A stretch of 64,000 nt of DNA, from contig ONOE01000007.1 in NCBI GenBank assembly GCA_900319365.1, forward strand, positions 1,792 to 65,791, read 5' to 3'. A program made the position numbers and the translations under genes. Source of the stretch: an uncultured bacterium (lineage in GTDB: Bacteria; Cyanobacteriota; Vampirovibrionia; Gastranaerophilales; Gastranaerophilaceae). The number at the start of each line of letters is the position of its first letter. Position 1 is the stretch's first letter. Shown here piece by piece: positions 22,593 through 60,997 of the stretch. The notes beneath the pieces are model-generated. The model was given only the letters and a program-made list of their open reading frames with translations, had not been told where the DNA came from and searched no databases.

Positions 22593-22627
22593 TATATATA
22601 TAAAGTATTTTTCAGACCCGAAATTGC
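22593..22627 (-). promoter_or_regulatory. GCAATT-N15-ACTTTATATATATA element, copy 1 (upstream of the ART-like gene)
   Basis: Exact 14-mer and exact GCAATT with a 15-nt spacer. 27 nt separate the element from the ATG at 22565. Confidence 0.6.
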
Positions 22628-22864
22628 CTTTTTGTTACTAATATTAACAAATTTAAAAATAAATTTTTTAGTGCTTAATATTATGTAAATCCTTACAATG
22701 AATGACTTTAAACGACTTCCCCAGATGTAAATTTTAAAATTAAATGTGAATTAATGTAACAAGTGATTCTATTTTGTGAAATTTTTATTATGAAAAAATT
22801 TTTTTATATTTGAGAGTATCTACATCCCAATATAAATTAATGCAACAAAACCTTATTTTCGCTC

Positions 22865-23119
22865 ATGATTGAATTAACAAACAGAGAAAAAGAAGTTATG
22901 CATCTAATGTGCCGGGGATATTCAAATCCCGAAATTGCACAGATACTATGTATCACCATGTTTACGGCAAAAGCTCATGTATGTTCGATTTTAAAGAAGC
23001 TGAATGCAAAAAACAGAATCCTTGCCGTTGTAAAATACATTTGTTTAAAATACGGCATCGATACTTTGCTTGAAGAACTTCAACTAAATCCGCAATACGA
23101 AAATCGCAGCGAATTTTAG
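22865..23119 (+). CDS. stand-alone LuxR/GerE-type helix-turn-helix regulator (84 aa)
   Basis: LTNREKEVMHLMCRGYSNPEIAQILCITMFTAKAHVCSILKKLNAKNR is a complete GerE HTH with no receiver or ligand domain. Confidence 0.8.
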   Translation: MIELTNREKEVMHLMCRGYSNPEIAQILCITMFTAKAHVCSILKKLNAKNRILAVVKYICLKYGIDTLLEELQLNPQYENRSEF

Positions 23120-23254
23120 TAAATTTTAATCTGAATTTTTTGGAACTTTTTTGTGCGGCAAATGGCGCCAAACATTTGCCAAGCTTATTTTTGCCTAATC
23201 GTGTTAATTTCCGTATAAATAATATTAACAAATGTTAAAAGAAAATAGGTTTCT

Positions 23255-23289
23255 GAAATTTTGCAAAATTTTTAACCTTTATATATATG
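23255..23289 (+). promoter_or_regulatory. GAAATT-N15-CCTTTATATATATG element, copy 2
   Basis: Variant of the 35-bp element with the same 15-nt spacing. 26 nt separate it from the ATG at 23316. Confidence 0.5.
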
Positions 23290-23315
23290 AAGATACATAC
23301 CAAGGAGAGATTGTG

Positions 23316-23693
23316 ATGGATGAAAGTATTACATCAATTGACGAATTAAAAAAAGCTCAGGCTGCCGCACAAGCGCAGGGAACTTCTATTACCAATTACA
23401 ACGATTGGGAAAACATATTAGAGGATTTTGATGTTGCAGGGATTCAGTCAACAGGAACTTATGCAGGCGATGTAAAATTGCACAGTCAGATAATTAATCA
23501 GGTTCAAGATATGATTGAACAGGCGCAGGAAGAACAACAGGTTCAACAATTGCAGCCGAACAATGATGATTTGTCTAAGCTGGATAATAAAACTTCTCAA
23601 GACAGCGAACAAACCATAAAAGCCAACGTAGTAAATGCTACGAGCTCAACTATTATGGCGGATTATATGAAATATTATCATTTGTTGAGCTAA
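23316..23693 (+). CDS. hypothetical acidic Gln-rich protein (125 aa)
   Basis: ORF 23232-23693. I prefer the internal ATG at 23316, which is preceded by AAGGAGAG. No family recognised. Confidence 0.5.
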   Translation: MDESITSIDELKKAQAAAQAQGTSITNYNDWENILEDFDVAGIQSTGTYAGDVKLHSQIINQVQDMIEQAQEEQQVQQLQPNNDDLSKLDNKTSQDSEQTIKANVVNATSSTIMADYMKYYHLLS

Positions 23694-23698
23694 AAAGT

Positions 23699-24403
23699 TT
23701 ATATCGTATTTTTTAATCTGTGCAAAACTCTTACACGATCAAACGGGTAGAATAAAAATACCGCACGCCCGACAAAACGATCTCTTTTCAGAGTTCCCCA
23801 GTAACGGCTGTCTTGCGAATTGCCACGGTTGTCGCCCATCATAAAGTATTCGTCTTTACCTAATTTAAACGGTCCGCATTTCATTACTCTATCGTCATAT
23901 TTGAAGAATGATTCCATTTTTTTATCAGGGCAAAGCGGGTATTCATAGGCGCTTTGAATATATTTTTCTTTATATTTTTTGCCGTTTATATAAACATAAG
24001 CCGCACCGTCATCATCAAACTTAATTTCTATTGTTTCACCGGGAAGTCCGACAACACGTTTAATGTATGCAATATCTTTGCACATAATGCCTGTTAAGCG
24101 CTCAAGCAATGGTATAGGAGCTCTTGACAATTGTGTAGACGGCGGATACAAAACCATAATATCCCCTCTTTTAGGACCCGAGAAAAATCTTGAAAATCTT
24201 TCAACAACAATTCTGTCGCCTTCAACTAATGTCGGATGCATTGAGCCTGACGGTATCCAGCGAATTTCTGCTATAAAAAATCTTATTATAATTACCATAA
24301 CGAGAACAAAAACAATTGTACTTATTGTTTCGCCCCAGCCCGTCTTTTCCCATTTATCATACTTCTGTTTGTATTCTTTAATTTTATCTAAAACTCTACT
24401 CAT
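23699..24403 (-). CDS. lepB: signal peptidase I
   Basis: One TM helix, PSGSMHPTL (catalytic Ser box), GDRIVV, YIKRVVGLPGE (Lys box) and MMGDNRGNSQDSRYWG. Confidence 0.9.
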   Translation of the reverse strand: MSRVLDKIKEYKQKYDKWEKTGWGETISTIVFVLVMVIIIRFFIAEIRWIPSGSMHPTLVEGDRIVVERFSRFFSGPKRGDIMVLYPPSTQLSRAPIPLLERLTGIMCKDIAYIKRVVGLPGETIEIKFDDDGAAYVYINGKKYKEKYIQSAYEYPLCPDKKMESFFKYDDRVMKCGPFKLGKDEYFMMGDNRGNSQDSRYWGTLKRDRFVGRAVFLFYPFDRVRVLHRLKNTI

Positions 24404-25283
24404 CTTTTAAAAGCTCCAAGAATTTGTTTAATGCGCTTTTATAATCGTTATCGGGCAAAATATCCAGATAACTCTGCGCTTTATCTATATAATTATTCAA
24501 CAAATTCTCTGTTTTTTCAATACCGTCGGAATAATTCTCAACGCTTTGCGCAAAAATCACGGGCGCATTATAAATCCCGTCGTTAAGGTCGTTTCGTGTC
24601 GGTTTGTCGGTTTCATTTTCTTTTAAATTGTTCAAATCATCTCGTATTTGAAAAGCGATTCCCGTATTCAGGGCGAAACTCTTTGCGTTGTCTTTGGTGT
24701 TTTCATCAATGGTTTTGTCAAACACAATCGGCGCAAGTACGGCTGTTTCAAAAAGGTATGCCGTTTTATCTTTTGTCTTTTCGATATATTGCTCTATTGT
24801 GCCGATTTTAAAGCGGTTAAAGTTTTGAGTGATTTCGCCCGTGCACATTTTGCTTAAAGTTTTTGAAAAACTTTCCAGTAGTTCATTGTTATTTAATTTC
24901 ACAAGAATGTTCATCGCAAGCGATAAAAGGTAATCCCCCGCAATTACGCCGATTTTATTCCCGAAAGTTTCGGAAACAGTTTCCAGTCCCCGTCGTGTTT
25001 TGCTTTCATCAATAATATCGTCATGAATTAACGAGGCGTTATGAACTATCTCTACTGCGCTTAATGCCGAAACTTGTTTTTCGGTTAAATCTTTCCCTAG
25101 TGCTTTAATAAATAAAACAGGCAAAACAAGCCTTATTCTTTTGGCGTGCGAATTTAAAAACAACAAAATTTTACCATTCAACGGTTCTGAAAGGTTTATC
25201 ATTTTTGAAATATGTTTTTCGATAATGCCGATTTCAGGCGATACCAAATTCTTTATATCGGAATATTTTTTAGCAAAAGTCAT
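24396..25283 (-). CDS. trans-polyprenyl diphosphate synthase (IspB/HepT-like)
   Basis: First Asp-rich motif LIHDDIIDES. The second motif is FQIRDDLNN (DDxxN rather than DDxxD). Confidence 0.8.
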   Translation of the reverse strand: MTFAKKYSDIKNLVSPEIGIIEKHISKMINLSEPLNGKILLFLNSHAKRIRLVLPVLFIKALGKDLTEKQVSALSAVEIVHNASLIHDDIIDESKTRRGLETVSETFGNKIGVIAGDYLLSLAMNILVKLNNNELLESFSKTLSKMCTGEITQNFNRFKIGTIEQYIEKTKDKTAYLFETAVLAPIVFDKTIDENTKDNAKSFALNTGIAFQIRDDLNNLKENETDKPTRNDLNDGIYNAPVIFAQSVENYSDGIEKTENLLNNYIDKAQSYLDILPDNDYKSALNKFLELLKDE

Positions 25284-25290
25284 TGTTGTT

Positions 25291-26232
25291 TTAATCTTTC
25301 TTCGGTGCGGGAGCAGGTTTTTTGTTATTATCTTTTTGTTGTAATTTTAAATAATTTACATTATCCCAGCTCAAATCAATGTATTTGATTTTTTCGTGAA
25401 CTTCATGGATTTGCGGCAAAATTGTATAAATTCTCTTTATTCTGTCAAATACCGAGCTGTCCAAAACCCCGAGCCTTACGCTTGTTGTTTTAATTTTTAC
25501 GTAAACGTCAAGAGGATTTCTCATATCAACGTAGCTGACTTTTTCTTTTGAATATGTTTCAACAGCTTTGGCTATCTTTTCTATAAATAAAACCCTGTCA
25601 ACATTCCAATCTTTTTTGATATCGGAACTTTTTACAAGTATACACAAGGTCGAATTTGTATCAGCCAGATGCATATAATCCTTGCTTGTTACCATTATTT
25701 TATCCGTTGTAATAAAGGCTGCCGGTCGTTGTTTCAGGTCGGTTTTAATTATAGCCATAGGTATTCTTTCCCGCACGATTATTTTAATTCTCGGAGGAAA
25801 ACCGAATCTTCTTACATAAAGCGTTTTTATAACCGGAATTTTGTATAATTCTTTTTTTATCGGTCGAACTGACATCATAAAAATCGGAATATGCTGAACT
25901 TTTATCTCCTTTAAGCTGTTATAAATAACGGAAGTCGGAACAATTTTGTTATTTATTATTTCAACCGTTTGAATGTCGGGAGATGTAAATGCATCTGATC
26001 TTAAATACCAGCCTTTGAGATTAACAAAGCAGTATATCGAAAAAATGAGCACAAAAAACAACACCATTCGCAAAAATGCTTTGAAGCGATTTAATCTTTT
26101 TGCCTGTTTTCGGATTTGTCTTTCTTTCTGCCTGATATAAACAGAATGCCGACCTTCTTCCTTGGCTTTTTTCATTTCCTGCGAATAAGATAAATTCTCA
26201 TTATTCGGTTTTTCGTTTTCGTTTTCGGTCAT
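25291..26232 (-). CDS. ftsQ: cell division protein FtsQ/DivIB (POTRA domain)
   Basis: Basic N-terminal tail, a single TM, then a POTRA-like segment. Positioned directly after ddl, as in dcw clusters. Confidence 0.72.
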   Translation of the reverse strand: MTENENEKPNNENLSYSQEMKKAKEEGRHSVYIRQKERQIRKQAKRLNRFKAFLRMVLFFVLIFSIYCFVNLKGWYLRSDAFTSPDIQTVEIINNKIVPTSVIYNSLKEIKVQHIPIFMMSVRPIKKELYKIPVIKTLYVRRFGFPPRIKIIVRERIPMAIIKTDLKQRPAAFITTDKIMVTSKDYMHLADTNSTLCILVKSSDIKKDWNVDRVLFIEKIAKAVETYSKEKVSYVDMRNPLDVYVKIKTTSVRLGVLDSSVFDRIKRIYTILPQIHEVHEKIKYIDLSWDNVNYLKLQQKDNNKKPAPAPKKD

Positions 26233-28063: not shown

Positions 28064-28109
28064 ACTTCACATAATTATATTACAATTATGCAAAAGGGGC
28101 AATTTATCT

Positions 28110-28472
28110 TTATTCTTTAACACAAAAAACATTTGCCGTTGCATAGTCAGAACAATGTGAAATGCTTATTTTAATTTTTATATTCGGATATTTTTTTATT
28201 TTGCAAACAGGTTTGCCGTCAGGTTCATTTAAAGTTTCAATGTCGCTATAATAAATATCTTTTATCCCAAGTTCGCTCAATGCTTTTACAACAGCCTCTT
28301 TTGCACAATACCTGCCGCATAAATTGAGATAATATTTAGATTTTGAAAAGCAATATTCCAATTCTTTCGGAGTGAAAATTTTATCAAGCATATCCGAATC
28401 TTTGCTTGAATATCGTTTAAATCTTTCCGTTTTTTCTATGTCTGTTCCTATAGCAATATTTGCAAATTCCAT
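28110..28472 (-). CDS. acpS: holo-[acyl-carrier-protein] synthase
   Basis: IGTDIEKTERF...RYCAKEAVVKAL...ISISHCSDYA. The start is taken at the internal ATG (MEFANIAIG), since the upstream extension is hydrophobic junk. Confidence 0.85.
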   Translation of the reverse strand: MEFANIAIGTDIEKTERFKRYSSKDSDMLDKIFTPKELEYCFSKSKYYLNLCGRYCAKEAVVKALSELGIKDIYYSDIETLNEPDGKPVCKIKKYPNIKIKISISHCSDYATANVFCVKE

Positions 28473-28603: not shown

Positions 28604-29131
28604 TTAAGCTTGCGCCGTATATTTAGGAGCCATATCTTTTATATCCTGATCTCTGGCTTCCCTTGCAGCTTTCAATTCCTGAGCGATTTCCTCTTGAAGT
28701 GTTGTTAATTTTTCTTTTTCATCTTCAAGTTTTTCTTCTTCGACTTTCAGGTTCTTTGTTTCCTGTTGAGCTGCCATTTCTCTGCCTTGAATATAAAGCT
28801 GGCGCATAATATAATTTTGCATCATTTGAGCTTGTTGAGGATTTTGAACCCCGCCCATTTGCTGTTGATACATCATCTGCATAGCAGGAGCATTAGCCTG
28901 CATATATTGCATTGCCGTGTTATGAGCATAACCCATATATGCCATTGACCTGCTCATTGTTGATCCCGGAGATGCCAGTAAATCTCCGATAGAGATTTGT
29001 CCGTTTCCGACCATTGAGGCATATTGTTGCAAATCTCTAAGTTTTTTTGAAATCTTTAAGAGTTTGTACTGTACATCAGATTTCTGACGTATCAGGTCAT
29101 GAACTCTTGCGGTACACATTAGAAAACCCAT
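28604..29131 (-). CDS. MG[FL]L-type coiled-coil protein with a Met/Gln-rich centre (paralog of 37985-38317)
   Basis: 175-aa ORF. The N-terminal MGFLMCTARVHDLIRQKSDVQYKLLKISKK parallels MGLLIATIQRRQLRMERSNLQFQLLLITKA of the other copy. The C-terminus is an E/K-rich coiled coil. Confidence 0.5.
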   Translation of the reverse strand: MGFLMCTARVHDLIRQKSDVQYKLLKISKKLRDLQQYASMVGNGQISIGDLLASPGSTMSRSMAYMGYAHNTAMQYMQANAPAMQMMYQQQMGGVQNPQQAQMMQNYIMRQLYIQGREMAAQQETKNLKVEEEKLEDEKEKLTTLQEEIAQELKAAREARDQDIKDMAPKYTAQA

Positions 29132-29184
29132 TGTCCTACCCTACCTTTTTTAAATTTTTAAACTAACCTAAATTTTTTAACCTA

Positions 29185-29219
29185 CATATATATAAAAACA
29201 TGCAATATCAAGTAATTGC
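29185..29219 (-). promoter_or_regulatory. GCAATT-N15-TTTTTATATATATG element, copy 3
   Basis: Exact GCAATT, a 15-nt spacer and an 11/14 match to the 14-mer. 53 nt separate it from the ATG at 29131. Confidence 0.5.
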
Positions 29220-29263
29220 ATGTTTTTAGCCTTTTATTAAGTTATGTTAAGTTTAATATTTTT

Positions 29264-29881
29264 TTATTTGTTATGAGATTTTTCTATAACCTTATCGATA
29301 AGTCCGTATTCTTTAGCTTCAAATGCGGACAGGTAGTGATCTCTTTCACAATCTTCTTTAACTTTTTCAATATCTTGTCCTGAATTTTGGGCAATTATAT
29401 TAATTAACATTTCTTTCATTCTTAAAATTTCTTTAGCTTCAAGTTCGATATCGGTTGCCTGACCTTTAGCGCCGCCTAACGGTTGGTGAATCATTATTCT
29501 TGAACTCGGTAAAGACATTCTTTTGCCTTTAGCGCCCGAACATAATAAAAATGCTCCCATTGATGCTGCTTCCCCTAAACAAATAGTTGCTACATCGGCT
29601 TTTATAAGGTTCATTGTATCATATATTGCCATACCTGAAGTTATTACACCTCCGGGGCTATTAATATATAACATGATATCTTTATCGGGATTTTCGCTAT
29701 CTAAGAGTAAAAGTTGAGCAATTATAGAATTTGCAACGTCATCATCAATTTCCGTTCCAAGGAATATAATTCTTTCTCTTAACAATCTTGAAAAGATATC
29801 AAAAGAGCGTTCGCCTCTTGAAGATGCTTCAATTACCGTAGGGACATATCCCATTATTTTCATATATGTTTCTTGATCCAT
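29264..29881 (-). CDS. clpP: ATP-dependent Clp protease proteolytic subunit
   Basis: [18 protein letters not shown], the catalytic [11 protein letters not shown] (Ser) and IMIHQPLGG (His). Confidence 0.95.
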
Positions 29882-31187: not shown

Positions 31188-31796
31188 ATGGTTTTAGAAA
31201 ACAAGCTCGGTATTACTGAATCTGCTGAACTTGCAAGGGTCGAAGAAAAAATCAGCAAGAAAAAAGCAAAAGAGATGTTTGAAAACGGCTTTTTGGATAG
31301 TTTGAACGCCGGAGGTTTTGACTCGCTTTCTAAAATTCACCATTATCTTTTTGATGAAATATATTCTTTTGCAGGACAAATTCGAACGGTAAATATTGCT
31401 AAAGGGAATTTTCGTTTTGCTCCGGTGATGTATTTAAAATCCGCTCTAAAATCTATAGATCAGATGCCTCAGTCAAATTTCGATGAAATCATAGAAAAAT
31501 ATGTTGAAATGAATGTTGCGCACCCTTTTAGAGAAGGAAACGGAAGATGTACACGTATCTGGCTTGATTTAATACTAAAAAAAGAGTTAGGCAAAGTTGT
31601 TGATTGGAGCAAGGTCGATAAAAATGATTATCTTCTTGCAATGGAGCGGAGTCCGATAAAAGACGTTGAAATAAAAGTTTTGTTAAAAAACGCATTGACT
31701 CCTGACATTAATGACAGAGAAGTTTATATGAAAGGAATTGACTCAAGCTATCATTATGAAGGGTACAATCTTTTTAGAACAAAAGATTTGAATTAA
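31188..31796 (+). CDS. fic: Fic-family AMPylase, class III (C-terminal inhibitory helix)
   Basis: Complete FIC motif HPFREGNGRCTR and a C-terminal SYHYEG that matches the (S/T)xxxE(G/N) inhibitory motif. About 200 aa, like E. coli/Neisseria Fic. Confidence 0.88.
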   Translation: MVLENKLGITESAELARVEEKISKKKAKEMFENGFLDSLNAGGFDSLSKIHHYLFDEIYSFAGQIRTVNIAKGNFRFAPVMYLKSALKSIDQMPQSNFDEIIEKYVEMNVAHPFREGNGRCTRIWLDLILKKELGKVVDWSKVDKNDYLLAMERSPIKDVEIKVLLKNALTPDINDREVYMKGIDSSYHYEGYNLFRTKDLN

Positions 31797-37483: not shown

Positions 37484-37646
37484 ATTTGATTTCTTTTATT
37501 TTCTCCGTTTAAAAATGTTACAAAATTTATACCGAATATATTAATTTTTAAAGATTTATTTAATATAATCCGTATACTATCAGGTAATAAACAGTAACCC
37601 ATGGATTCTACATGTTAAGAAATATTAATAAAGAATTTATAAAATA

Positions 37647-37681
37647 GCAATAATTCAATAAAAGATGTTTTTTAATACATG
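37647..37681 (+). promoter_or_regulatory. GCAATA-N15-TTTTTTAATACATG element, copy 4 (degenerate; paralogous to copy 3)
   Basis: Same 15-nt spacing. As in copy 3, the 14-mer ends in ATG and is followed by TAGGT. It lies 24 nt before the ATG at 37706. Confidence 0.4.
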
Positions 37682-37705
37682 TAGGTCTAAAGTGCAAGGA
37701 ATAAC

Positions 37706-37978
37706 ATGATTCAAGAATCTTTAGAACTATATTTCAGAAGACTTTTAGACTTTCTGTTATACACAAAAAACTACATAATAAGGACAAATCCCATAAAGAC
37801 TTTATCCGAATCGGTAGTTGAAAGTATAAAAGATTTTCTGACAGTAAAAAAGAAATTGAAAATGGCTCAATACAGGCTAAATTATCACAGACACCAGCTT
37901 CAAAAGATGGAGCAGTTGATAGCCGAAAACAGCGATCACAGTTTCTTAAAAGGTTCCAACTTAGATCAAAGAAGGTAG
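37706..37978 (+). CDS. hypothetical protein (90 aa)
   Basis: ORF only. First reading frame after element copy 4, and 6 nt upstream of the next gene. Confidence 0.3.
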   Translation: MIQESLELYFRRLLDFLLYTKNYIIRTNPIKTLSESVVESIKDFLTVKKKLKMAQYRLNYHRHQLQKMEQLIAENSDHSFLKGSNLDQRR

Positions 37979-37984
37979 TTCAAA

Positions 37985-38317
37985 ATGGGTTTACTGATTG
38001 CAACAATTCAAAGACGTCAGCTCCGAATGGAGAGGTCTAATTTGCAATTCCAATTGCTTCTTATCACAAAAGCAATTGCGACTGCAGGTAAATCTACCAA
38101 CGAATTAATGCAAGTCGGTACCGATTATGAATCGGATTCTATCATTGCAAAACGTTTGCAAGAAAGACAATACAAGTTAAAATTAATGGAAGAATCATTG
38201 AGCTTGCAGAAAGAAGAAATTCAAACAAGACTGCAAGAAATTGATACCGAATTGAAATCCGTAGATGAAATGATTAGAGGAGAAATTCAGGATTTATTCT
38301 CTTATGGTAATCACTAA
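37985..38317 (+). CDS. MG[FL]L-type coiled-coil protein (paralog of 28604-29131)
   Basis: 110 aa. The N-terminal and coiled-coil similarity to 28604-29131 is described there. Confidence 0.5.
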   Translation: MGLLIATIQRRQLRMERSNLQFQLLLITKAIATAGKSTNELMQVGTDYESDSIIAKRLQERQYKLKLMEESLSLQKEEIQTRLQEIDTELKSVDEMIRGEIQDLFSYGNH

Positions 38318-44990: not shown

Positions 44991-47111
44991 ATGGCTCAAC
45001 CGGAAGGACAACAACAATCTAATCCGTTAAGTGAAGTTTTTATGGCAGTATTCGTGCTGTTCTTAATTGTCATATTGTTGTGCGAACTTCCGAACTGGGT
45101 TATAAATATTTGTATTTGTTTAAATATCTCTTTAGGTATTGTCCTTTTGATGTTTGCATTGTATGTACAAAAGACTTTGGAATTATCATCATTCCCGTCA
45201 ATCATTCTTATCGGTACGATGTTTCGATTGTGTCTTTCAATTGCCTCTACAAGGTTAATTCTTTCTAAAGGGGAGGCTGGAGAAGTAATTCACGCATTCG
45301 GAACGTTCGTAACAGGCGGAAACATGATTGTCGGCGGTGTAATTTTCTTAATTATCACGATTGTACAGTTTATGGTTATCACAAAAGGTGCCGAGCGTAT
45401 CGCCGAAGTATCCGCAAGGTTTGCGTTAGATGCTATGCCCGGTAAACAGATGACAATCGATGCGAACTTTAACGCAGGTATTATTTCCCCCGAAGAAGCT
45501 ACAAGACAGCGTGATGATTTATCCAGAGAATCAAACTTAATGGGTTCTATGGATGGTGCTATGAAGTTCGTAAAAGGGGATACAATCGCAGGTATTATCA
45601 TCGTTTTAATTAACATTATCGGCGGGTTGTGTGTCGGATGTTTGATGAACCAGATGCCTATAGCAGATGCGGTCAGTAAATATACCATCTTAACCATCGG
45701 TGATGGTTTGGCATCTCAGGTCCCGTCCCTTTTGATGTCAATATCAGCAGGTGTATTTATGACAAGAGCTTCTGCAAAGAGCGCATCATTGGGTGCTGAT
45801 GTTACAAGTCAGATTACAAGTAAACCGCACGCTTTGTTCTTTGCATCAATATTCTTGATATTCCTTGGTATAACAGGTCATACTCCGTTCTGGCAAGGAA
45901 CGGGACTTCCTTGTCTGCCGTTCTTTATATTTGGCGGCATGATATTTATTGCAGGTTTTCAGGTCCTTATCAATGCCGATGTTCAATCTCAGTTGGGGCA
46001 ATTGGAAAATGTTAAACAAAACATGCAGGATCTTGTTAACCCGAACAGAATGTATGAAAGATTGGGTGTTGATATTTTAAGCTTGCAGGTAGGTTCAAAT
46101 CTGCTTGTTATTGCCGATCCCGATCAAGAGGGTCAATTGCTTGCTAAAATTGCCGCATTAAGACAAAGGGTTACTGATGAACTCGGGTATATTTTGCCTA
46201 ACATTCGTATTATGGACTCATCAGCGCTTGATGCCAATGAATATATGATTTTAATCAGAGGTAACACGGTAGCTACAGGTTATGTATACCCGGGGAAATA
46301 TATGGTTATTGCCGATCAATGGGATTCTATGAAAAAAGAAGTACCGGATGATGCCATAATCGGTATTGACCCGACTTATCAAACTCAGGCGTACTGGATT
46401 AGTGCAGATGATGCAAAATCTGCCCGTCTTGTTACGGCTGTTGATGCAACTGATGTTATCGTTACACACTTGCAAGAATGCGTAAGAAAACACGTTGATG
46501 AAGTCATGACAAAAACCGATGTTCTTAAACTTATGGAACTTGTCAGATCTCAAGATCCCACTTTGGTTAATGACCTTGTCCCGACAATTATTTCTACGAG
46601 TGATTTGAGAAAGATTTTTGTAAACTTAATCAGAGAAAAAGTTTCAATAAAAGATATTATATTTGTGTTTGAAAGATTGTGCGATTATGCAAGATTTTCA
46701 AAAGAGCCCGATATTTTGTCAGAGCGTTTAAGAGCGGCATTAGGCAGGCAGATTTGTTTGGCTAACGTTCAGGAAGATAGAGTAATGTATGCCCTGACCT
46801 TATCACCCGAATGGGAGAAAATCCTTGATGATTCCTGCCAGAGAACAGAGCTTGGCACAATGTTTCTGTTAAACCCCGTTCAGGTTCAGGAACTTATTGA
46901 AACCACAGCGACAACGTTGATGAGGGCGCACCAAACTTGCGGCAGGCAGCCTGTTGTTCTTTGTTCTCCAAGAATCAGACTTCCTCTGTATCAGTTACTT
47001 GAACGCCATATTCCTACAATCGTTGTCATTTCATACTCTGAACTTATTACAGATATTAAAGTAGAAGCTATTGATACAATCGGGGATGCTTATCCTCAAG
47101 AACAGCAATAA
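44991..47111 (+). CDS. flhA: flagellar type III export apparatus protein FlhA
   Basis: 706 aa. Eight TM segments with the conserved FHIPEP-family loop (ARFALDAMPGKQMTIDA...MGSMDGAMKFVKGD) and a large cytoplasmic C-domain. Confidence 0.95.
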   Translation: MAQPEGQQQSNPLSEVFMAVFVLFLIVILLCELPNWVINICICLNISLGIVLLMFALYVQKTLELSSFPSIILIGTMFRLCLSIASTRLILSKGEAGEVIHAFGTFVTGGNMIVGGVIFLIITIVQFMVITKGAERIAEVSARFALDAMPGKQMTIDANFNAGIISPEEATRQRDDLSRESNLMGSMDGAMKFVKGDTIAGIIIVLINIIGGLCVGCLMNQMPIADAVSKYTILTIGDGLASQVPSLLMSISAGVFMTRASAKSASLGADVTSQITSKPHALFFASIFLIFLGITGHTPFWQGTGLPCLPFFIFGGMIFIAGFQVLINADVQSQLGQLENVKQNMQDLVNPNRMYERLGVDILSLQVGSNLLVIADPDQEGQLLAKIAALRQRVTDELGYILPNIRIMDSSALDANEYMILIRGNTVATGYVYPGKYMVIADQWDSMKKEVPDDAIIGIDPTYQTQAYWISADDAKSARLVTAVDATDVIVTHLQECVRKHVDEVMTKTDVLKLMELVRSQDPTLVNDLVPTIISTSDLRKIFVNLIREKVSIKDIIFVFERLCDYARFSKEPDILSERLRAALGRQICLANVQEDRVMYALTLSPEWEKILDDSCQRTELGTMFLLNPVQVQELIETTATTLMRAHQTCGRQPVVLCSPRIRLPLYQLLERHIPTIVVISYSELITDIKVEAIDTIGDAYPQEQQ

Positions 47112-47147
47112 TTGTTACGAATTGTTAAATCTAATGTTCTTAAAAAG

Positions 47148-47182
47148 GCAATTAATCTGCTTATATATACTTTATATATATA
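47148..47182 (+). promoter_or_regulatory. GCAATT-N15-ACTTTATATATATA element, copy 5
   Basis: Exact copy. 27 nt separate it from the ATG at 47210. Confidence 0.6.
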
Positions 47183-47209: not shown

Positions 47210-47539
47210 ATGGCACAGAGCAGAGCAATAGATGCAATCAATCGTACAAATGCAACTTCGGGTGAAGCTTATGTTCCTACTAAACTTGATATAGAAAATG
47301 GAGCATTAGGAGCAACATTCGGAACTATTAAACGTAATATCATTGAAACGGCTATGCGGGCTATAGGGTTGGATTATAATGTAAGTAACAGTTATGCGGA
47401 CATTATGTCTAATCCGAATAACGAAATCAGGGTAAAAGACAGAGTTTATTATCCGCATTCGGGGGTCGGAAATTTAAGACCCTACAATGAATCGGGTAAT
47501 CCCTCAGGCGGATGTTTTTCACTTTATACGGTCGGTTAA
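47210..47539 (+). CDS. hypothetical small protein (109 aa)
   Basis: ORF immediately downstream of element copy 5. No family recognised. Confidence 0.5.
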   Translation: MAQSRAIDAINRTNATSGEAYVPTKLDIENGALGATFGTIKRNIIETAMRAIGLDYNVSNSYADIMSNPNNEIRVKDRVYYPHSGVGNLRPYNESGNPSGGCFSLYTVG

Positions 47540-47555
47540 GGAGTTTACTACAAAA

Positions 47556-47822
47556 ATGGCAGGCGAAAACGCAATACAATTTAATCCAAGAGTCGGTGCA
47601 GATTTATCAAATATTTACGGTACAAATCCCGCATTTGATATCGGTGCTGATGCTATGCCCGTTAACAAAACCGATGTAAGTATGGGACAAGTAATGGTAA
47701 CTTTTCAGGATACGAAAAGCGAAAGCGTTCCGCAGCAAATGCAAAATATAACATCCGATAACAAAATCGGCAAATCATTAGATGCATTGGCTTTGATGAA
47801 CAGAACTTTTTTCAATAAATAA
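47556..47822 (+). CDS. hypothetical small protein (88 aa)
   Basis: ORF 47487-47822. I prefer the ATG at 47556, which is preceded by AAGGAG. Followed by a terminator hairpin. Confidence 0.45.
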   Translation: MAGENAIQFNPRVGADLSNIYGTNPAFDIGADAMPVNKTDVSMGQVMVTFQDTKSESVPQQMQNITSDNKIGKSLDALALMNRTFFNK

Positions 47823-53595: not shown

Positions 53596-53862
53596 TTACT
53601 TATTTAATTTTTTTAATAATTTGTTGAACCATGAATCGGTATCGGGCATATAATCAGGTTCGCTTTTCGGTAATTTAGAAGATAATTCAAAAGAGTCATG
53701 TTTTTCCATGGTGAACAGACTGCCTTTTTCTTCTTTTTTCTTTTGCCGTCCGCCGCCGCCCATATAACCGAGGTTGCCGCCGCTTCCGCCGTCATTGTTC
53801 ATGTTTGCAGCTGCTTTGATTACCGGTTCGGTTCTTGCAATGTTGTTTACATCGAAACTCAT
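53596..53862 (-). CDS. hypothetical small Gly-rich/basic protein (88 aa)
   Basis: ORF 53596-53946. I prefer the ATG at 53862, which is preceded by AGGAATAAGGAA. Element copy 6 lies 24 nt upstream. Confidence 0.45.
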   Translation of the reverse strand: MSFDVNNIARTEPVIKAAANMNNDGGSGGNLGYMGGGGRQKKKEEKGSLFTMEKHDSFELSSKLPKSEPDYMPDTDSWFNKLLKKLNK

Positions 53863-53886: not shown

Positions 53887-53921
53887 TATATATATAAAGT
53901 ATATTTTTCTTAAAATTTTGT
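53887..53921 (-). promoter_or_regulatory. N6-N15-ACTTTATATATATA element, copy 6 (upstream hexamer degenerate and overlapped by a palindrome)
   Basis: The 14-mer is exact. The hexamer position reads ACAAAA and is part of the palindrome TTGTTACA-N13-TGTAACAA (53918-53946). Confidence 0.5.
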
Positions 53922-54031
53922 TACATAATCGGTGCAATTGTAACAAAATTTTACAATTATTTTTGCCTAAAATCGGCTCCCCACAATTATATACTAAATG
54001 TAAAATTATGTAACGATAAATTGATTATTAT

Positions 54032-54059
54032 TAAATTTTATTTCCCATGCTGCCGATAT
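54032..54059 (+). promoter_or_regulatory. sigma-28 (FliA)-type promoter TAAA-N16-GCCGATAT
   Basis: TAAA at 54032-54035 and GCCGATAT at 54052-54059, 30 nt upstream of the ATG at 54090. Matches the canonical TAAA-N15/16-GCCGATAA consensus. Confidence 0.55.
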
Positions 54060-54089: not shown

Positions 54090-54998
54090 ATGTCATTATC
54101 AATTGATTCAACATTAGAATATCTTCAATCGCGGCTCTGCATCAGTGCCGCACGAATGGTTGATTACAAAGACAAAAGCGTCAAAGAAATTATTGAAGCT
54201 GAAGCCGCTCAAGGTAATCAGGCTGCAATTCAACTTGCTGCGGATATGTTTACCGATCCGACTTCGCTTATTGAATTGTTTCAACTTTCCGATCCTAATA
54301 ATAAATTGATAATAATGCGCCAGATGACATCTTCTCAGTTGGAAAAACTTCTTCCTATGCTTGAGCAGGATGATTTGGTTCAGGGGCTAAGATATTTCAC
54401 GATGGATTCATTAATGGATATGCTTGAAAAAATCCCCAAAGAAGAACTTGTTAAAACCGTATTCCAACTGTTTTCGGAAAGACAGGTTATTGAAATGCTG
54501 CCCGAACAACAGTTAGACAAAGTCCTGACAGGTGTTGATATGGATAAAGATTTGGTATTGAAAAATTTAAAATCAATCCCCGAAACTTATCTTCAACAAA
54601 TGATTGAAAGCGTAACGGGTCAGGAAGCACAAAGTTCAAATTCTCAAGATCTTATAAATACAATTTCGCAGTTTGGCGATTTGGATTATAAAAACGCTTT
54701 GAAAAATCTTGATGTTACTCAAAAAAGACGTTTAACCTTAATGATTACAAACACTGATAACAAATATTATTTGAATTTTGATTCTGATGCTTATACGCAT
54801 TTGATGGCTCGGGACAGAGAAAAAGAAGATGTCGTAAAAGCAATGGGTGTAATTAAACCCGAATATCTGCAAAAAATGCTTACCAACTTGCCGCCTGATT
54901 TGCTGCAAGTTGTTACAACACAAATTGATACGGAAAAATTTGCGCATTCATTAATCTTTAAGTTCCCCGAATTGTTGGCACAACTTGTTGCGCAATAA
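54090..54998 (+). CDS. all-helical FliG/MgtE_N-like repeat protein (302 aa)
   Basis: LIELFQLSDPNNKLIIMRQMTSSQLEKLLPMLEQDDLVQGL parallels the FliG middle-domain / MgtE-N pattern (L..FLQ.EHPQTIA..L..L....A..IL..L). The gene has a sigma-28-type promoter. Confidence 0.45.
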   Translation: MSLSIDSTLEYLQSRLCISAARMVDYKDKSVKEIIEAEAAQGNQAAIQLAADMFTDPTSLIELFQLSDPNNKLIIMRQMTSSQLEKLLPMLEQDDLVQGLRYFTMDSLMDMLEKIPKEELVKTVFQLFSERQVIEMLPEQQLDKVLTGVDMDKDLVLKNLKSIPETYLQQMIESVTGQEAQSSNSQDLINTISQFGDLDYKNALKNLDVTQKRRLTLMITNTDNKYYLNFDSDAYTHLMARDREKEDVVKAMGVIKPEYLQKMLTNLPPDLLQVVTTQIDTEKFAHSLIFKFPELLAQLVAQ

Positions 54999-55498: not shown

Positions 55499-55522
55499 AT
55501 TTTTACCTCTTTATCAATAAAT

Positions 55523-56893: not shown

Positions 56894-56895
56894 AG

Positions 56896-57120
56896 TTACT
56901 TGATAATGTTAAAACCTATTAAAAATGAACAAATAATGAATATTGCGCAAAACAGACCCGTAACTTTATTCAATCCTTTTTCTGCGCTTTTTTGAGATGC
57001 AAAAATATGAGAAGCTCCGCCGATTCCTCCAATGCCGTCGCCTTTAGGCGAGTGCATTAAAATCAATATTATTAAAAATGTTGCGGTTATAGTTGATACT
57101 ATCCATAAAAAATTTGCCAT
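56896..57120 (-). CDS. secG: preprotein translocase subunit SecG
   Basis: 74 aa with two TM helices separated by a Gly-rich loop (SPKGDGIGGIGGAS). Confidence 0.85.
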   Translation of the reverse strand: MANFLWIVSTITATFLIILILMHSPKGDGIGGIGGASHIFASQKSAEKGLNKVTGLFCAIFIICSFLIGFNIIK

Positions 57121-57801
57121 TTATTCTTTTTCTCCTTTTTTTATAAAATGAGCTCTTTTGGAGTCAAGTTTAATTCTTTCGAAAGTGTATAATCTTGCGG
57201 GTCTTTTTGAAGATGATTTTGTATATTCATCTAATTCTACCAACCCTTCTGTTGCGAGTGCTTTTTTTCTGAAGTTTCTTTTATCCAGTTTCTTTTGCAT
57301 AATAAGTTCATAAGCCTTTTGCATTTCGGTTAAAGTGAATTTTTCAGGTAACAACTGGTATGCAACAGGGCATATTTCGAGTCTTTCTCTTGTTCTTTTG
57401 AGCGAATATTGAATAATTTCTTTGTGGTCGAATGCCAGAGGCGGCAAATTGCTGACCTTGTGCCACCCCAGTTCGGGTGTTGAAACGATTTGAATATCTT
57501 TGGCACGAACAAGTGCAAAGTATGCACAGGTTATAACCCTTGCATTCGGGTGTCTTAACGGATCGCCGAATGTATACAACTGCTCAAGATAAATGTTATC
57601 AACGGCAGTTTTCTCTTTTAAAATTCTTAAAGCTGCCTCGTCAAGGTTTTCCGATAATCTTATATAACCTCCGGGGATGGCCCATCTGTCTTTAAACGGT
57701 TCGTTTGTTCTTTTTACAAGCAAAACCTGCAATGCGTTATTTTTAATGGTAAGTATAACGACATCGACAGTAATTTCATGAGTTTTAGTTTCGTTTAACA
57801 T
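57121..57801 (-). CDS. Nudix hydrolase fused to a C-terminal winged-helix domain (NrtR-like)
   Basis: Nudix fold (WAIPGGYIRLSENLDEAALRILKEKT). The C-terminal roughly 90 aa (FTLTEMQKAYELIMQKKLDKRNFRKK) match the NrtR wHTH region. Start taken at the ATG at 57801, after GAGGA. Confidence 0.72.
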   Translation of the reverse strand: MLNETKTHEITVDVVILTIKNNALQVLLVKRTNEPFKDRWAIPGGYIRLSENLDEAALRILKEKTAVDNIYLEQLYTFGDPLRHPNARVITCAYFALVRAKDIQIVSTPELGWHKVSNLPPLAFDHKEIIQYSLKRTRERLEICPVAYQLLPEKFTLTEMQKAYELIMQKKLDKRNFRKKALATEGLVELDEYTKSSSKRPARLYTFERIKLDSKRAHFIKKGEKE

Positions 57802-57911
57802 TATTCCTCGCACAAAAATTATCTATACAAATATTATTATAAACATGCCGTAGAGAAAATACCCGATTTGTTAAGCTGCTTAACATAATTTAATATTTTT
57901 GTAAAAATCAT

Positions 57912-57946
57912 GCAATTATTTATGAGAAATATACTTTATATATATA
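57912..57946 (+). promoter_or_regulatory. GCAATT-N15-ACTTTATATATATA element, copy 7
   Basis: Exact copy. 19 nt separate it from the ATG at 57966. Confidence 0.6.
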
Positions 57947-57965
57947 CAAGGGGATTTAAGGGATT

Positions 57966-58655
57966 ATGTTAAACACGGTATTTCAATCAAATATAACTAT
58001 AAGCGGCTATCCTTGCATGCCGTGTGCTAATCCGTTTATGGCTGCAGCACCTGTAGTAAATCCTTTTATGGGAGGTTCAATATTTAATTTCGGAACTCCG
58101 TTTGTTCCGTTTATGCCGGCAATGCCCGCTATGCCGATTTTCAACTTCCCTATGTTTAACTTTCCGATGTTAAACTTCCCGTTCTTCGGGTTCAGAAGCA
58201 ACGGTGCCGAAACTCAACAAAACATTCCGTCATCAACTTCTTCAAAAATCAAAACAGGTTTGTTAAAAGGCAACTTGAAAGGTAAAGAAGCTTATATCAC
58301 TTCATTATGTGAAAAATACGGGGTAGATGTCGGAGTTGTTCTTTCTATCATCGGTCAGGAATCAGGTTTCGGAACAAGCAATCTTGCAAAACACAACAAC
58401 TTCATGGGCTACAGAGCTGCAGGAGATGCAGGTAAAAACGAAAAAGGTTACGGCTACTTCTCAACTCCCGAAAAAGGGCTTGAAGCTGCAATTAAAAACC
58501 TTGCAAATTATCCTGCAAAATACAAAAAACAAGGCGTAACGAAAATCGATTTCAATAACATTGATGCAATCGGCAGAATCTATTGCGAAGGTTCTTCATA
58601 CAGCAACTCTTTAAGAAATATCTACAACAAAACAGTTAAACGCTACCTTGCATAA
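57966..58655 (+). CDS. FlgJ-type N-acetylglucosaminidase domain protein with a Met/Phe/Pro/Asn-rich low-complexity N-terminus
   Basis: The C-terminal IIGQESGFGTSNLAKHNNFMGYR matches the glucosaminidase (FlgJ C-domain) signature QESGWG.S.LA...NN.FG. The N-terminal 80 aa are PFM/NFP repeats (PFMPAMPAMPIFNFPMFNFPMLNFPFFGF). Confidence 0.7.
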   Translation: MLNTVFQSNITISGYPCMPCANPFMAAAPVVNPFMGGSIFNFGTPFVPFMPAMPAMPIFNFPMFNFPMLNFPFFGFRSNGAETQQNIPSSTSSKIKTGLLKGNLKGKEAYITSLCEKYGVDVGVVLSIIGQESGFGTSNLAKHNNFMGYRAAGDAGKNEKGYGYFSTPEKGLEAAIKNLANYPAKYKKQGVTKIDFNNIDAIGRIYCEGSSYSNSLRNIYNKTVKRYLA

Positions 58656-59918
58656 TTATTTAGTTTTGAAATTATCCATCGGAAGTTTGAATTTTTGGTA
58701 ATAATATTTGATTAAATTTTCTACATTCGGCCAACCGACAACATGTGATATATTTACTTTTTTATCATACAAAAAGTCGTGATAGCTTACCTGATAATTG
58801 TCAAAACATGCCAAATCAAGCCACAAATTATCATGTATTCTGCCTTTTTCGTATTCCGGGAGATTTTTTGCATAATACGGGTTTGCATCGGCTATAATAT
58901 CTATAAAATTCTTTCTGCCGTAGTGCGCTACATAATTTTTTCTCGGCGAATAATCCTGCGGGTGAGTAATAACCTTGTGAATAGTATCCGCAAGAGATTC
59001 GGGAGTAAATTTAGGAACATATTCTCCGCTGTTGCCAAAAAATATCGGGAATTTCCCTCTTGCGTATTTATTAAAATCTTTAAAAACAACTATGGGTGTG
59101 TTGCAGCTTTGAGCTTCGCTGATAAATCTGTTTTTTCCCTCAATAAGCGACCCCAGAACGCAGCATTTTGCAGCCGAATAATATTTTGATAAGTGTTTAT
59201 ATTCAATAAACGGATAAAAATCGATATAATCTTTTGTTCTGTTGTCAAAGATTTGATCTACGTATTGCAGCTGCTTTTTGCCGTAATCCTCCATTTTTGA
59301 ATAATCTAAAGAACCGTCCTCTCTCCTTACGGCAGATCTTCGCCCGATTGCATAAACGCATTTTAATCTCCTGCCGTATTTTCTTTCATATTCTTTTAAA
59401 GCAACCGCAATAATAGGAAGATTTTTTACGGGGAACGGAGTTGAAACGCAAAAAACATCAATTGTTTTGGGCGTATTTGGTACGGGTGCGATATAATATT
59501 CGTTCAAAAAATCCGCATCCTGCAAGGGTAAAAACATTATGTTTTTGGTTTCGGGGTGTTTCTTTTTATAATATTTTTCTCTTGCCTCATTCTTATAACA
59601 TGTGAAAAAGTAATCCGCTCTTGTATTTCTTGGGTATGAGCAAAACATTGAATTAGCAATGACAAAAAATATCTGCTTTAATTCGGGGTATTTGTCTAAA
59701 ATCATTCTCGTTGCCTGTGAATAGAAAACCCCTTTTAATAATTTCCCCTCATAAACTACGGGCGGAAGCGGAACAACCATATTGAGGTTTGCATGCAGTC
59801 TTTCGGTTCCTTCATATCTGTCCTCAAAACTGTATCCGTCTATATCGTCCCAAATACGCTCAATCGGCTTATCAATTTTCGGATTGTGCATATAGATTTC
59901 GGGCCAAATATTTTCCAT
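58656..59918 (-). CDS. probable GT-B fold (GT4-like) glycosyltransferase
   Basis: 420 aa. SLIEGKNRFISEAQSCNTPIVV resembles the GT4 E..G....EA...G.PVV motif. The assignment is weak. Confidence 0.5.
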   Translation of the reverse strand: MENIWPEIYMHNPKIDKPIERIWDDIDGYSFEDRYEGTERLHANLNMVVPLPPVVYEGKLLKGVFYSQATRMILDKYPELKQIFFVIANSMFCSYPRNTRADYFFTCYKNEAREKYYKKKHPETKNIMFLPLQDADFLNEYYIAPVPNTPKTIDVFCVSTPFPVKNLPIIAVALKEYERKYGRRLKCVYAIGRRSAVRREDGSLDYSKMEDYGKKQLQYVDQIFDNRTKDYIDFYPFIEYKHLSKYYSAAKCCVLGSLIEGKNRFISEAQSCNTPIVVFKDFNKYARGKFPIFFGNSGEYVPKFTPESLADTIHKVITHPQDYSPRKNYVAHYGRKNFIDIIADANPYYAKNLPEYEKGRIHDNLWLDLACFDNYQVSYHDFLYDKKVNISHVVGWPNVENLIKYYYQKFKLPMDNFKTK

Positions 59919-60037
59919 TACATTAACCTCCTAAATATAGTTTTCCTATGCTAATCATAAAAGAGCGGACCGAACAAGTCAATATTTCGGTCCGCAAAAT
60001 CCATCATAAATATTATCTTCAATTTTTGAAATTTATT

Positions 60038-60937
60038 TTATTTGTTGTGCCAGTTTGCTTTTCCTGCGCCTGCTTCTCCAGCATACTGGTTAAGTTCGAT
60101 AGCATCGCCGTGCCAACGTAATTGGTAAATCTGTCCGTCGCCGTCTGCTTTATATGATGCAATACCGTTTTTAACTTCAACAAATGTACACTTGTGTCCT
60201 CCGACGGTAATTGTATCATACCAGCCTTCTTTATTTTTCGTGCCGTATTTTGTTTCGCCGGTAATGGATGTATTATTTACGTGGTCTGCGATGATTATGT
60301 TGCCTTTAACGTCATCAGCTTTAACACCTGATTTATCTTCATGTTTTGTCGTTTTGCCGTCGTTGTCCGGCTTATCGGTGTCAGGTTTTTGTACGTCAGT
60401 ATTATTACTTTGTTTTTCATATCTTTTATTCAAAATATCAATCATTTCTTTAGATGTTGATGCTGTCGGGATAGGATCTTTATCAGAGTTATCGTCTGTT
60501 GCAACGAATTGTTTACTTGCTTTATCGTATATTACTTTCAAACCGTGTTTGCCATACAGCGTTTTCATGTTTGCAATTGATGCATCTGTATCATCGCCTT
60601 GAGGTTTAGCCTGTTGAGTTGTAGCGTTATTAAGTACGCCGAAAATATTGCCAAACGGGCTCATCATGCCCATATTGCCCATCATTCCGAAGTTGTTAAA
60701 TGACGGCATTCCCATATTGCTAAATATTGAGCAGCCACCCATATTCCCGCTGCCAAACAAACCTTGAGTTAAGCCGCCCATAAATCCCCAGAATCCCGAG
60801 GGACCGTTTTTAATATTAATGTTCTGCGTAATACTTACGTTTCTGCCTGCGGGCATCGGGGGCATTCCGCCTCCACGAAACCTGAACGGTACGTTCTGGA
60901 ACATATCCTGCGATCTGAAAAAATTATAGTATGCCAT
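60038..60937 (-). CDS. hypothetical protein with a Gly/Met/Phe/Asn-rich low-complexity N-terminus, a D/K/T-rich linker and a globular C-domain
   Basis: ORF 60038-60949. The ATG at 60937 is preceded by GGAGAGAG. The sequence contains GFWGFMGGLTQGLFGSGNMGG...NFGMMGNMGMMSPFGNIFG. Confidence 0.5.
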   Translation of the reverse strand: MAYYNFFRSQDMFQNVPFRFRGGGMPPMPAGRNVSITQNINIKNGPSGFWGFMGGLTQGLFGSGNMGGCSIFSNMGMPSFNNFGMMGNMGMMSPFGNIFGVLNNATTQQAKPQGDDTDASIANMKTLYGKHGLKVIYDKASKQFVATDDNSDKDPIPTASTSKEMIDILNKRYEKQSNNTDVQKPDTDKPDNDGKTTKHEDKSGVKADDVKGNIIIADHVNNTSITGETKYGTKNKEGWYDTITVGGHKCTFVEVKNGIASYKADGDGQIYQLRWHGDAIELNQYAGEAGAGKANWHNK

Positions 60938-60962
60938 AACTCTCTCCAAATTCTTACTTCTT

Positions 60963-60997
60963 TATATATATAAAGTATATACTCATGCAAGAATTGC
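60963..60997 (-). promoter_or_regulatory. GCAATT-N15-ACTTTATATATATA element, copy 8
   Basis: Exact copy. 25 nt separate it from the ATG at 60937. Confidence 0.6.

Follow-up and report, generated by a model that had tools for sequence, protein, structure and literature searches.

The window analysed here, a 64-kb stretch of contig ONOE01000007.1 from an uncultured bacterium of the order Gastranaerophilales, carries one flagellar operon (fliE-fliF-(unassigned 343-amino-acid (aa) open reading frame (ORF))-fliH-flhA) and, at its left edge on the minus strand, fliA. Proteins from gut and rumen metagenome-assembled genomes labelled Gastranaerophilales, Melainabacteria or 'Cyanobacteria bacterium UBA' share 85-93% identity with the FlhA protein (44991-47111), which places the window in a non-photosynthetic relative of cyanobacteria. 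The element that we studied is a promoter-like sequence composed of a GCAATT box, a 15-nucleotide (nt) spacer and a long -10-like box, and its copies are dispersed among housekeeping genes (lepB-like, polyprenyl synthase, ftsQ, ddl, murB, acpS, clpP and serine biosynthesis genes, with a SNF2 helicase, purH, recR, radA, secG and an NrtR-like gene as further neighbours). An earlier note on this DNA had listed eight copies, and we found the coordinates and strand of each to be correct. All eight are intergenic and aimed at an ATG with a Shine-Dalgarno sequence 19-53 nt downstream, and the same start codons were called independently on a public contig of the same organism.

The -10-like box ACTTTATATATATA is exact in five of the eight copies (22593(-), 47169(+), 53887(-), 57933(+) and 60963(-)), and with up to two mismatches allowed it gives 11 matches in the window against 1.9 expected, a number that none of 100 shuffles reached. 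The upstream hexamer reads GCAATT five times, GAAATT once, GCAATA once and, in one degenerate copy, ACAAAA, and the spacer is 15 nt at every site, all as the earlier note had described. Using a weight matrix of the two boxes that allows spacers of 14-16 nt, we found that the eight sites score 18.3-29.8 bits within the window, with the next best match at 16.3 bits, and that none of 20 Markov-randomised windows holds more than 8 matches of at least 12 bits. Furthermore, a ninth copy (22778-22812(+), 16.0 bits) precedes the gene of an 84-aa LuxR/GerE-type regulator, and this copy is a genuine though weaker member of the set.

The element had been called bipartite; the two boxes hold, but a third box, present upstream of every copy, had been missed. 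Two TGTWAH half-sites, repeated with a period of 10 bp, make up this box, which ends 15-19 nt upstream of GCAATT. At all nine promoters of the window it matches TGTWAH-N4-TGTWAH at 11-12 of 12 positions, and, except at promoter 1 (numbered as in Table 1), the gap between its best copy and the -35 box is 15-19 nt. The upstream box is the reverse complement of the cyanobacterial HLR1 motif, for which the published consensus is (G/T)TTACA(T/A)(T/A)-N2-(G/T)TTACA(T/A)(T/A), two imperfect 8-nt direct repeats (PMC6525291), and the box indeed shows two 8-nt repeats placed 2 nt apart.

A metagenome scan with GCAATT-N15-ACTTTATATATAT found the pattern on at least 120 gut and rumen contigs, with 138 distinct sites among the matches listed; the upstream box was scored at 127 sites. 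These sites were picked by the core pattern, a selection in which neither the upstream box nor position 35 nor the flanks took part. Scored against shuffled controls, the best match to KTTACAWWNNKTTACAWW reaches 16/16 at 21 of the 127 listed sites and at least 14/16 at 79, as against 2% of shuffles, while TGTWAH-N4-TGTWAH is perfect at 56 and matches at 11 or more of 12 positions at 95 (0.3% and 4% of shuffles, respectively). Gaps of 2, 3, 5, 6 or 7 nt between the half-sites give at most three perfect matches. The WalR box TGTWAH-N5-TGTWAH, with its 11-bp period, was rejected as a candidate, being perfect at 3 of the 127 sites compared to 56 for the N4 form.

Conservation at the listed sites extends beyond the 35 nt of the element and beyond the search pattern: AAAAAG precedes GCAATT and TTT follows it, ATATA stands before CTTT, A18, A20 and T21 are conserved, R-R-G occupies positions 37-39, and position 35 is a purine at 127 of 127 sites. 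Since spacers and flanks differ between copies, the copies resemble each other at particular positions only and did not arise by duplication. A Shine-Dalgarno sequence and a start codon lie within 13-84 nt of 108 of the 138 listed sites, and most of the others are followed by an intrinsic terminator after 60-170 nt.

Furthermore, the element is not specific to this genome and is found across the order. The gene of the 90-aa protein at 37706 (p90) and its neighbour, whose product begins with MGLL, have orthologues in 41 of 80 flhA loci of other genomes (labelled here with L-numbers). At the 24 of these with enough upstream DNA, conservation covers the three boxes of the p90 promoter and the 5′ leader but not the DNA between them, giving the pattern TTAAGAAATRTTAM ... 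nCAAT(T/A) - N15 - TTTTTAAATAYATG - TAGGTCTAAAGTGTAAGGA. The leader itself (37681-37705, GTAGGTCTAAAGTGTAAGGA) is near-invariant in the 24 genomes, the surrounding promoter spacers being variable, which suggests a post-transcriptional control site overlapping the Shine-Dalgarno sequence. With relaxed searches, we found the same architecture before unrelated genes in L002, L008, L032, L034, L038, L041, L045, L051, L060 and L071. A species-specific motif, first suggested by the few exact matches in the 80 flhA loci, was discarded once relaxed patterns and orthologue footprinting revealed an order-wide element with small -10 variants. The density of the motif is 0.125 per kb in the window and 0.018 per kb in the flhA neighbourhoods of the other genomes, about a 7-fold difference. 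Averaging around all GCAAT[TA] occurrences returned codon periodicity only and was uninformative, and promoter 5 could not be footprinted, synteny 3′ of flhA not being conserved in the 80 loci. In L039 and L073, which belong to another genus, an HLR1-like box TTAACAAAATTTTACAAA lies 3 nt from GCAATT, followed by N15-CATTATGATAAAA (~12097-12160, 3′ of flhA); with its differing geometry and -10 box, this element may belong to the class as a variant.

Collectively, these results support the earlier proposal that the element is of promoter type and marks uncharacterised genes that are regulated together, and we are highly confident that the element defines a genuine class of co-regulated promoters. 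The promoters of the window, their targets and related features elsewhere are collected in Table 1.

Table 1. Promoters and target genes in the 64-kb window, followed by related features at loci of other genomes (L-numbers).
Feature	Position	Strand	Details
Promoter 1, core	22593-22627	-	GCAATT-N15-ACTTTATATATATA; predicted to drive 21159-22565(-), 468-aa toxin-like ADP-ribosyltransferase
Promoter 1, HLR1-like box	22634-22657	-	three TGTWAH-like half-sites TTTAAATTTGTTAATATTAGTAAC; 11/12, HLR1 14/16
Ninth promoter	22745-22812	+	box TGTGAATTAATGTAAC 22745-22760; gap 17 nt; GAAATT-N15-TTTTTTATATTTG 22778-22812; HLR1 15/16
Ninth promoter, target	22865-23119	+	84-aa LuxR/GerE-type helix-turn-helix protein; GerE 1.8e-15
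Promoter 2	23223-23289	+	box TATTAACAAATGTTAA 23223-23238; gap 16 nt; GAAATT-N15-CCTTTATATATATG 23255-23289
Promoter 2, target	~23316-23693	+	125-aa protein, no family
Promoter 3	29185-29250	-	core GCAATT-N15-TTTTTATATATATG 29185-29219; box 29235-29250
Promoter 3, target	28604-29131	-	175-aa MGFL coiled-coil protein, Met/Gln-rich; leader with AGGTTAG repeats
Promoter 4	37613-37681	+	box TGTTAAGAAATATTAA 37613-37628; gap 18 nt; GCAATA-N15-TTTTTTAATACATG 37647-37681
Promoter 4, targets	37706-37978; 37985-38317	+	90 aa; 110 aa, MGLL
Promoter 5	47113-47182	+	directly 3′ of flhA; box TGTTACGAATTGTTAA 47113-47128 (12/12); gap 19 nt; core 47148-47182
Promoter 5, targets	47210-47539; possibly 47487-47822	+	109 aa (47210-47539)
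Promoter 6	53887-53955	-	core 53887-53921, degenerate -35 ACAAAA; box TGTAAAATTTTGTTAC 53940-53955 (12/12)
Promoter 6, target	53596-53862	-	88 aa
Promoter 7	57880-57946	+	box 57880-57895; core 57912-57946
Promoter 7, target	57966-58655	+	229 aa; Met/Phe/Pro-rich head; glucosaminidase domain (PF01832, 6e-09)
Promoter 8	60963-61030	-	core 60963-60997; box TGTAAACAAATATTAA 61015-61030
Promoter 8, target	60038-60937	-	299-aa Gly/Met-rich protein; homologues behind the same promoter type in L034, L038, L041, L129
Sigma-28-type promoter with box	53997-54059	+	HLR1 16/16 53997-54014; gap 17 nt; TAAA-N15-GCCGATAT 54032-54059
Sigma-28-type promoter, target	54090-54998	+	302 aa; weak MgtE_N match
Second group-3 sigma	L020 12814-13611; L021 12968-13768; L023; L026; L059		~0.5-1.4 kb 3′ of flhA
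ORF-less transcripts, type A	L087, L089, L095, L102, L109, L123, L168, L170
ORF-less transcripts, type B	L091, L111, L114, L125, L145, L148, L176
ORF-less transcripts, type C	L008, L060, L132

The core promoter is made of a -35 region (A)AAAAG-GCAATT-TTT, a spacer of exactly 15 nt, a long -10 region ATATACTTTATATATAT-R and a purine-rich start region, and the -10 part common to all members reads TTT-A-W-A-T-A-Y-A-T-R. As claimed earlier, it differs from the housekeeping promoters of the same window, such as that of tRNA-Gly, which is canonical (TTGAAA-N16/17-TATTAT). A consensus scan for sigma-70 promoters (TTGACA-N17(+/-1)-TATAAT, with A at -11 and T at -7) skips all eight cores; because T and A alternate along the shared -10 run, no register of that run offers both A at -11 and T at -7, and a TACTTT or TATACT register is confined to the ACTTT subtype. 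The core is likewise distinct from the true sigma-28 promoter at 54032-54059, which is the one true match in the region to the FliA promoter TAAA-N15-GCCGATAA, a pattern that none of the eight cores matches. The sigma-54 pattern GG-N10-GC (TGGCAC-N5-TTGCA) is absent from the aligned sites, and none of the sigma-E/K, sigma-H, extracytoplasmic function (ECF), TcdR-type, Bacteroidetes or sigma-54 promoters fits in a comparison with their general consensus sequences.

The same type of box appears to serve both core types: the perfect HLR1 box at 53997-54014 lies 17 nt from TAAA, a distance also seen between box and GCAATT, and this agreement supports GCAATT as a true -35 box. In L136, the homologue of the 302-aa gene behind this sigma-28 promoter has a GCAATT-type promoter instead. 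At promoter 3, the -35 box and spacer fall inside a 14-bp inverted repeat (29193-29228, AAAAACATGCAAT...ATTGCATGTTTTT), which the scan reports as terminator-like on the plus strand; the repeat is located just downstream of clpP (29264-29881, -) and may form a hairpin ending the clpP transcript.

The genes behind these promoters had been described earlier in terms that proved roughly right. The glucosaminidase assignment is confirmed by Pfam (6e-09), with no match in a PDB sequence search, and the exact protein is indexed in 158 blocks of the collection searched, so that the organism is common; the assignment of the 468-aa protein as a C3-like ADP-ribosyltransferase is weakly supported, as it scores 23.1 bits on Pfam ADPrib_exo_Tox, for a cut-off of 23.4, and its PDB match to C3larvin is marginal (E = 0.016). 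The other targets in the window are two MG[FL]L coiled-coil proteins, five small proteins without a family and the LuxR-type regulator, in addition to the Gly/Met-rich protein of Table 1. The possible second gene behind promoter 5 (47487-47822) overlaps the first by 53 nt in another frame, has no homologue in the 80 loci and is uncertain as a gene. In other genomes, the same promoter precedes CHAP, SLT, M15 and LysM proteins with similar low-complexity heads, as well as recurring small families that include a ribbon-helix-helix protein. Among 48 representative downstream proteins surveyed for families, 11 have a Pfam match, each family occurring in one member except EF-hand, which occurs in two. 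Among 58 representatives surveyed for composition and N-termini, half have a segment rich in G/M/F/N/P/Q/Y/S within the first 150 residues, compared to 6% of the other window genes, and none has a Sec-like N-terminus, compared to 15% of the other window genes. The regulon is a collection of many single-gene islets encoding small, lineage-specific, fast-evolving, low-complexity proteins without a Sec signal, among them peptidoglycan hydrolases (glucosaminidase, CHAP, SLT, M15, LysM), the toxin-like ADP-ribosyltransferase and small regulators of the LuxR and ribbon-helix-helix types.

A macro-domain protein (20365-20874, +; Pfam 3.5e-47) is convergent with, and adjoins, the ADP-ribosyltransferase gene (21159-22565, -). 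Macro domains remove ADP-ribose, and the two proteins could therefore be a toxin-antidote pair. A Fic-domain gene is located at 31188-31796.

About 25 of the listed promoters are followed by no ORF, the predicted transcripts being short (~60-170 nt), poor in G and ended by clear intrinsic terminators. These transcripts share the repeated motifs ACACACUAACCU, CUUCCUAACCUUCCCUUCCU or CUCUCUCUCUU, and Rfam returned no family for them or for anything else at the sites. They appear complementary to the AGGUUAG repeats present in many mRNA leaders of the regulon, including that at 29131-29184(-). Pairing between such small RNAs and the leaders was examined as a candidate and dropped, since the duplex energy of -12.3 kcal/mol, compared to -12.8 for shuffled sequences, gives no support beyond base composition. 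In Synechocystis, RpaB controls the small RNA PsrR1; by analogy with cyanobacterial RpaB, the regulon described here may include small RNAs.

By its sequence, the upstream box is of a known activator-site type, joined here to a previously undescribed core promoter. In Synechocystis, HLR1 activates when its centre lies between -66 and -45 and represses when it overlaps the core promoter (PMC6525291). If +1 is assumed at motif positions 35-39, the centre of the box would be at -58 to -65, within the range given for activation. The genes rpaA, rpaB and nblS, the diagnostic 'light and clock' regulators of cyanobacteria, have been known since 2013 to be kept by Melainabacteria without photosystems, and were reported in all Melainabacteria orders with no known function noted (PMC3787301, PMC4040986). 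We did not see rpaB inside the window. Among the related loci, L014, L015 and L079 encode an OmpR-family regulator, and the L015 protein scores 361.7 bits on the RpaB equivalog model NF045944 of NCBIfam (cut-off 330 bits), the next-best models being MtrA at 245 bits and YycF/WalR at 226 bits, both below their cut-offs. A PDB sequence search with this RpaB returned only MtrA, RegX3 and RpaA relatives. The promoter of rpaB itself is canonical (TTGCAA-N17-TAATAT; L014 ~21925-21942, same in L079), and between its -35 and -10 boxes we found an HLR1-like box on the opposite strand (ATTACATTAAGTTACAAA, 15/16), a repressing position that suggests negative autoregulation.

From these similarities of site and regulator, we lean towards RpaB as the activator of these promoters. 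The earlier note had called for a dedicated sigma factor or activator: its activator half now has an RpaB-type candidate through the HLR1-like box, and for the sigma half we found a candidate without a link to the motif. In the model that we propose, an RpaB orthologue, probably paired with an NblS/Hik33-type kinase, would bind the upstream box as a tandem dimer and, at this 'activating' position, would recruit RNA polymerase. The recruited polymerase would carry a sigma factor other than the housekeeping one or FliA, possibly a second group-3 sigma (267 aa, SigB/F/G-like, 140 bits and thus below the family cut-off) encoded near flhA in five genomes. The identity of the box binder, the sigma that reads the core, the start position and the direction of regulation are all inferred in this model. 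That a dedicated alternative sigma reads the core is a step we make with less assurance than the assignment of RpaB.

Several observations weigh against this model. The box was placed relative to +1 from the sequence alone; HLR1 matches of at least 13/16 occur about 100 times per 64 kb, near the expectation for AT-rich DNA; and the boxes of the window individually reach only 12-15/16 (16/16 for that of the sigma-28 promoter), so that the case is carried by their position and by the whole set. The half-site TGTWACA is near-palindromic, which leaves the orientation ambiguous (53 'top' vs 42 'rc'), and such ambiguity is not what tandem OmpR-type binding usually shows. As the metagenome sites were chosen by the core pattern, the conservation of the core among them is partly circular. 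As to the sigma factor, no test ties the group-3 candidate to the motif, and its own promoter is of another type; furthermore, no sigma gene is found among the 48 sampled downstream genes, so that the autoregulation frequent for alternative sigmas is not seen. Literature searches on promoters or sigma factors of Gastranaerophilales found nothing relevant.

We considered whether the core might instead be an activator-dependent promoter read by the housekeeping sigma, with a poor -35 box nnGCAA (TTGCAA-like), a -10 box TACTTT (positions 21-26, 16-nt spacer) or TATACT (19-24), and the invariant TATATAT as a conserved discriminator or initial transcribed sequence (a shared RNA 5′ end) rather than a sigma contact. 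Activator-dependent promoters (class I and class II activation) commonly have a weak -35 box, the rpaB promoter reads TTGCAATTTTTT-...-TAATAT and shares GCAATTTT, and T21, A22 and T26 would supply T-12, A-11 and T-7, with positions 18-22 conserved outside the search pattern. However, promoters of the p90 type (promoters 3 and 4 and the 24 orthologues) lack both TAC and TATACT and keep TTT-A-N-ATA-Y-AT-R, so that what all members have in common, and hence what functions, is the run at positions 24-35; moreover, GCAATT and the fixed spacer vary far less than their counterparts in the canonical promoters of the window, and 12-14 invariant positions are atypical of sigma-70 -10 regions. We consider this explanation rather unlikely. 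A late-flagellar or flagellar-export-substrate regulon under a FliA-like factor, a module that the earlier note had entertained, is a poorer prospect still. The architecture recalls sigma-28 promoters (short -35, 15-nt spacer, long -10), one promoter follows flhA, the p90/MGLL promoter stays upstream of the fliE operon in 41 loci, the products resemble flagellar export substrates in their disordered heads and missing Sec signals, the glucosaminidase is of the FlgJ type, and the 302-aa gene, driven by sigma-28 here and by a GCAATT promoter in L136, is the sole flagellar link. Yet none of the 48 representative products belongs to the flagellin, hook-associated or chaperone families, no flagellin was found in the 80 related loci, the sites lie among housekeeping genes, the gene order 3′ of flhA is not conserved, and the core is unrelated to TAAA-N15-GCCGATAA, which persists unchanged in the same window; many Gastranaerophilales, moreover, are reported to have no complete flagella (PMC4040986). 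The flagellar module is not supported.

Doubts about the activator concern who binds the box: an RpaA orthologue, another OmpR-family regulator or the 84-aa LuxR/GerE-type protein could do so, which we judge to be unlikely. RpaA is also encoded by Melainabacteria (PMC3787301, PMC4040986), L154 has a second OmpR-type regulator, quasi-palindromic half-sites would suit a symmetric dimer, and the gene of the 84-aa helix-turn-helix protein, located between promoters 1 and 2 and hence amid the sites, has a box and a weak core of its own. Both the sequence and the 10-bp period of the box nevertheless agree with the RpaB consensus from the literature, in many cases perfectly, and the RpaB orthologue is highly conserved with a box in its own promoter. 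No usable RpaA consensus was found in the literature searched. The GerE-type regulator was rejected as a conserved neighbour, having a homologue in only one of the 80 related loci whereas the box is order-wide. Finally, the element could be a dispersed repeat (a mobile-element end, a recombination site or a repetitive extragenic palindromic (REP)-like sequence) and not a promoter, as many near-identical copies of the 14-nt core adjoin variable accessory genes. This we regard as extremely improbable: conservation is limited to discrete boxes with unrelated spacers, the orientation toward start codons at 5′ untranslated region distances is strict, inverted-repeat partners, transposase and target duplications are absent, and the element is kept at an orthologous locus across species.

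Taken together, the RpaB assignment and the core promoter lead us to a tentative proposal, in which NblS-RpaB and a dedicated sigma reading GCAATT-N15-ACTTTATATATAT would control a large, fast-evolving regulon that is not concerned with light acclimation. Under this proposal, and with the same reserve, the regulon would possibly comprise hydrolases of the cell wall, effectors resembling toxins, low-complexity proteins that are secreted or belong to the envelope, and small RNAs. If so, its function would parallel that of the WalRK and MtrAB cell-wall regulons, which would suggest that RpaB originally served to control the envelope and was recruited by photosynthesis later. The Sec-less cell-wall hydrolases and the putative ADP-ribosylating toxin may mediate envelope remodelling or interbacterial antagonism in the gut. 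The promoter class provides a first sequence-defined candidate regulon and binding-site prediction for RpaB in a non-photosynthetic lineage, both of which purified protein and synthetic DNA can check with no need for culturing. Furthermore, its strong signature, easy to recognise in metagenomes, helps to annotate starts, small proteins and non-coding RNAs of this uncultured lineage from gut and rumen.

Among known systems, sigma-28 promoters share with this class the short -35 box, the fixed 15-nt spacer and the long, highly conserved -10 box, and the sigma-28 promoter of the window also shares the distance to an HLR1 box and a gene family that alternates between both types. They differ in the sequence of both boxes, a canonical FliA promoter coexists with the class, and the genes here are non-flagellar. 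WalR (YycF) of Firmicutes and MtrA of Actinobacteria recognise the same tandem TGTWAH half-site (PMC9210968) and are close OmpR-family relatives, MtrA and YycF being the next-best NCBIfam models for the Gastranaerophilales RpaB. WalR regulons 'invariably' include peptidoglycan hydrolases (PMC9210968), several of which are present here. The half-sites are separated by N5 there and by N4 here, however, the regulator here is an RpaB equivalog (YycF 226 bits, for a cut-off of 340), and the organism is a diderm. The closest counterparts are the HLR1/RpaB promoters of cyanobacteria, for example those of photosystem I genes (Riediger et al. 2019). The host here is non-photosynthetic, the targets have no relation to photosynthesis, and the box is coupled to a conserved non-canonical core, GCAATT-N15-ACTTTATATATAT, that is undescribed in cyanobacteria; alike in both are the repeats with their 10-bp period, the copy in a repressing position inside the regulator's own core promoter, and the presence in the lineage of an RpaB orthologue that scores above the equivalog cut-off, and the distal position of the box would agree as well if transcription starts where predicted.

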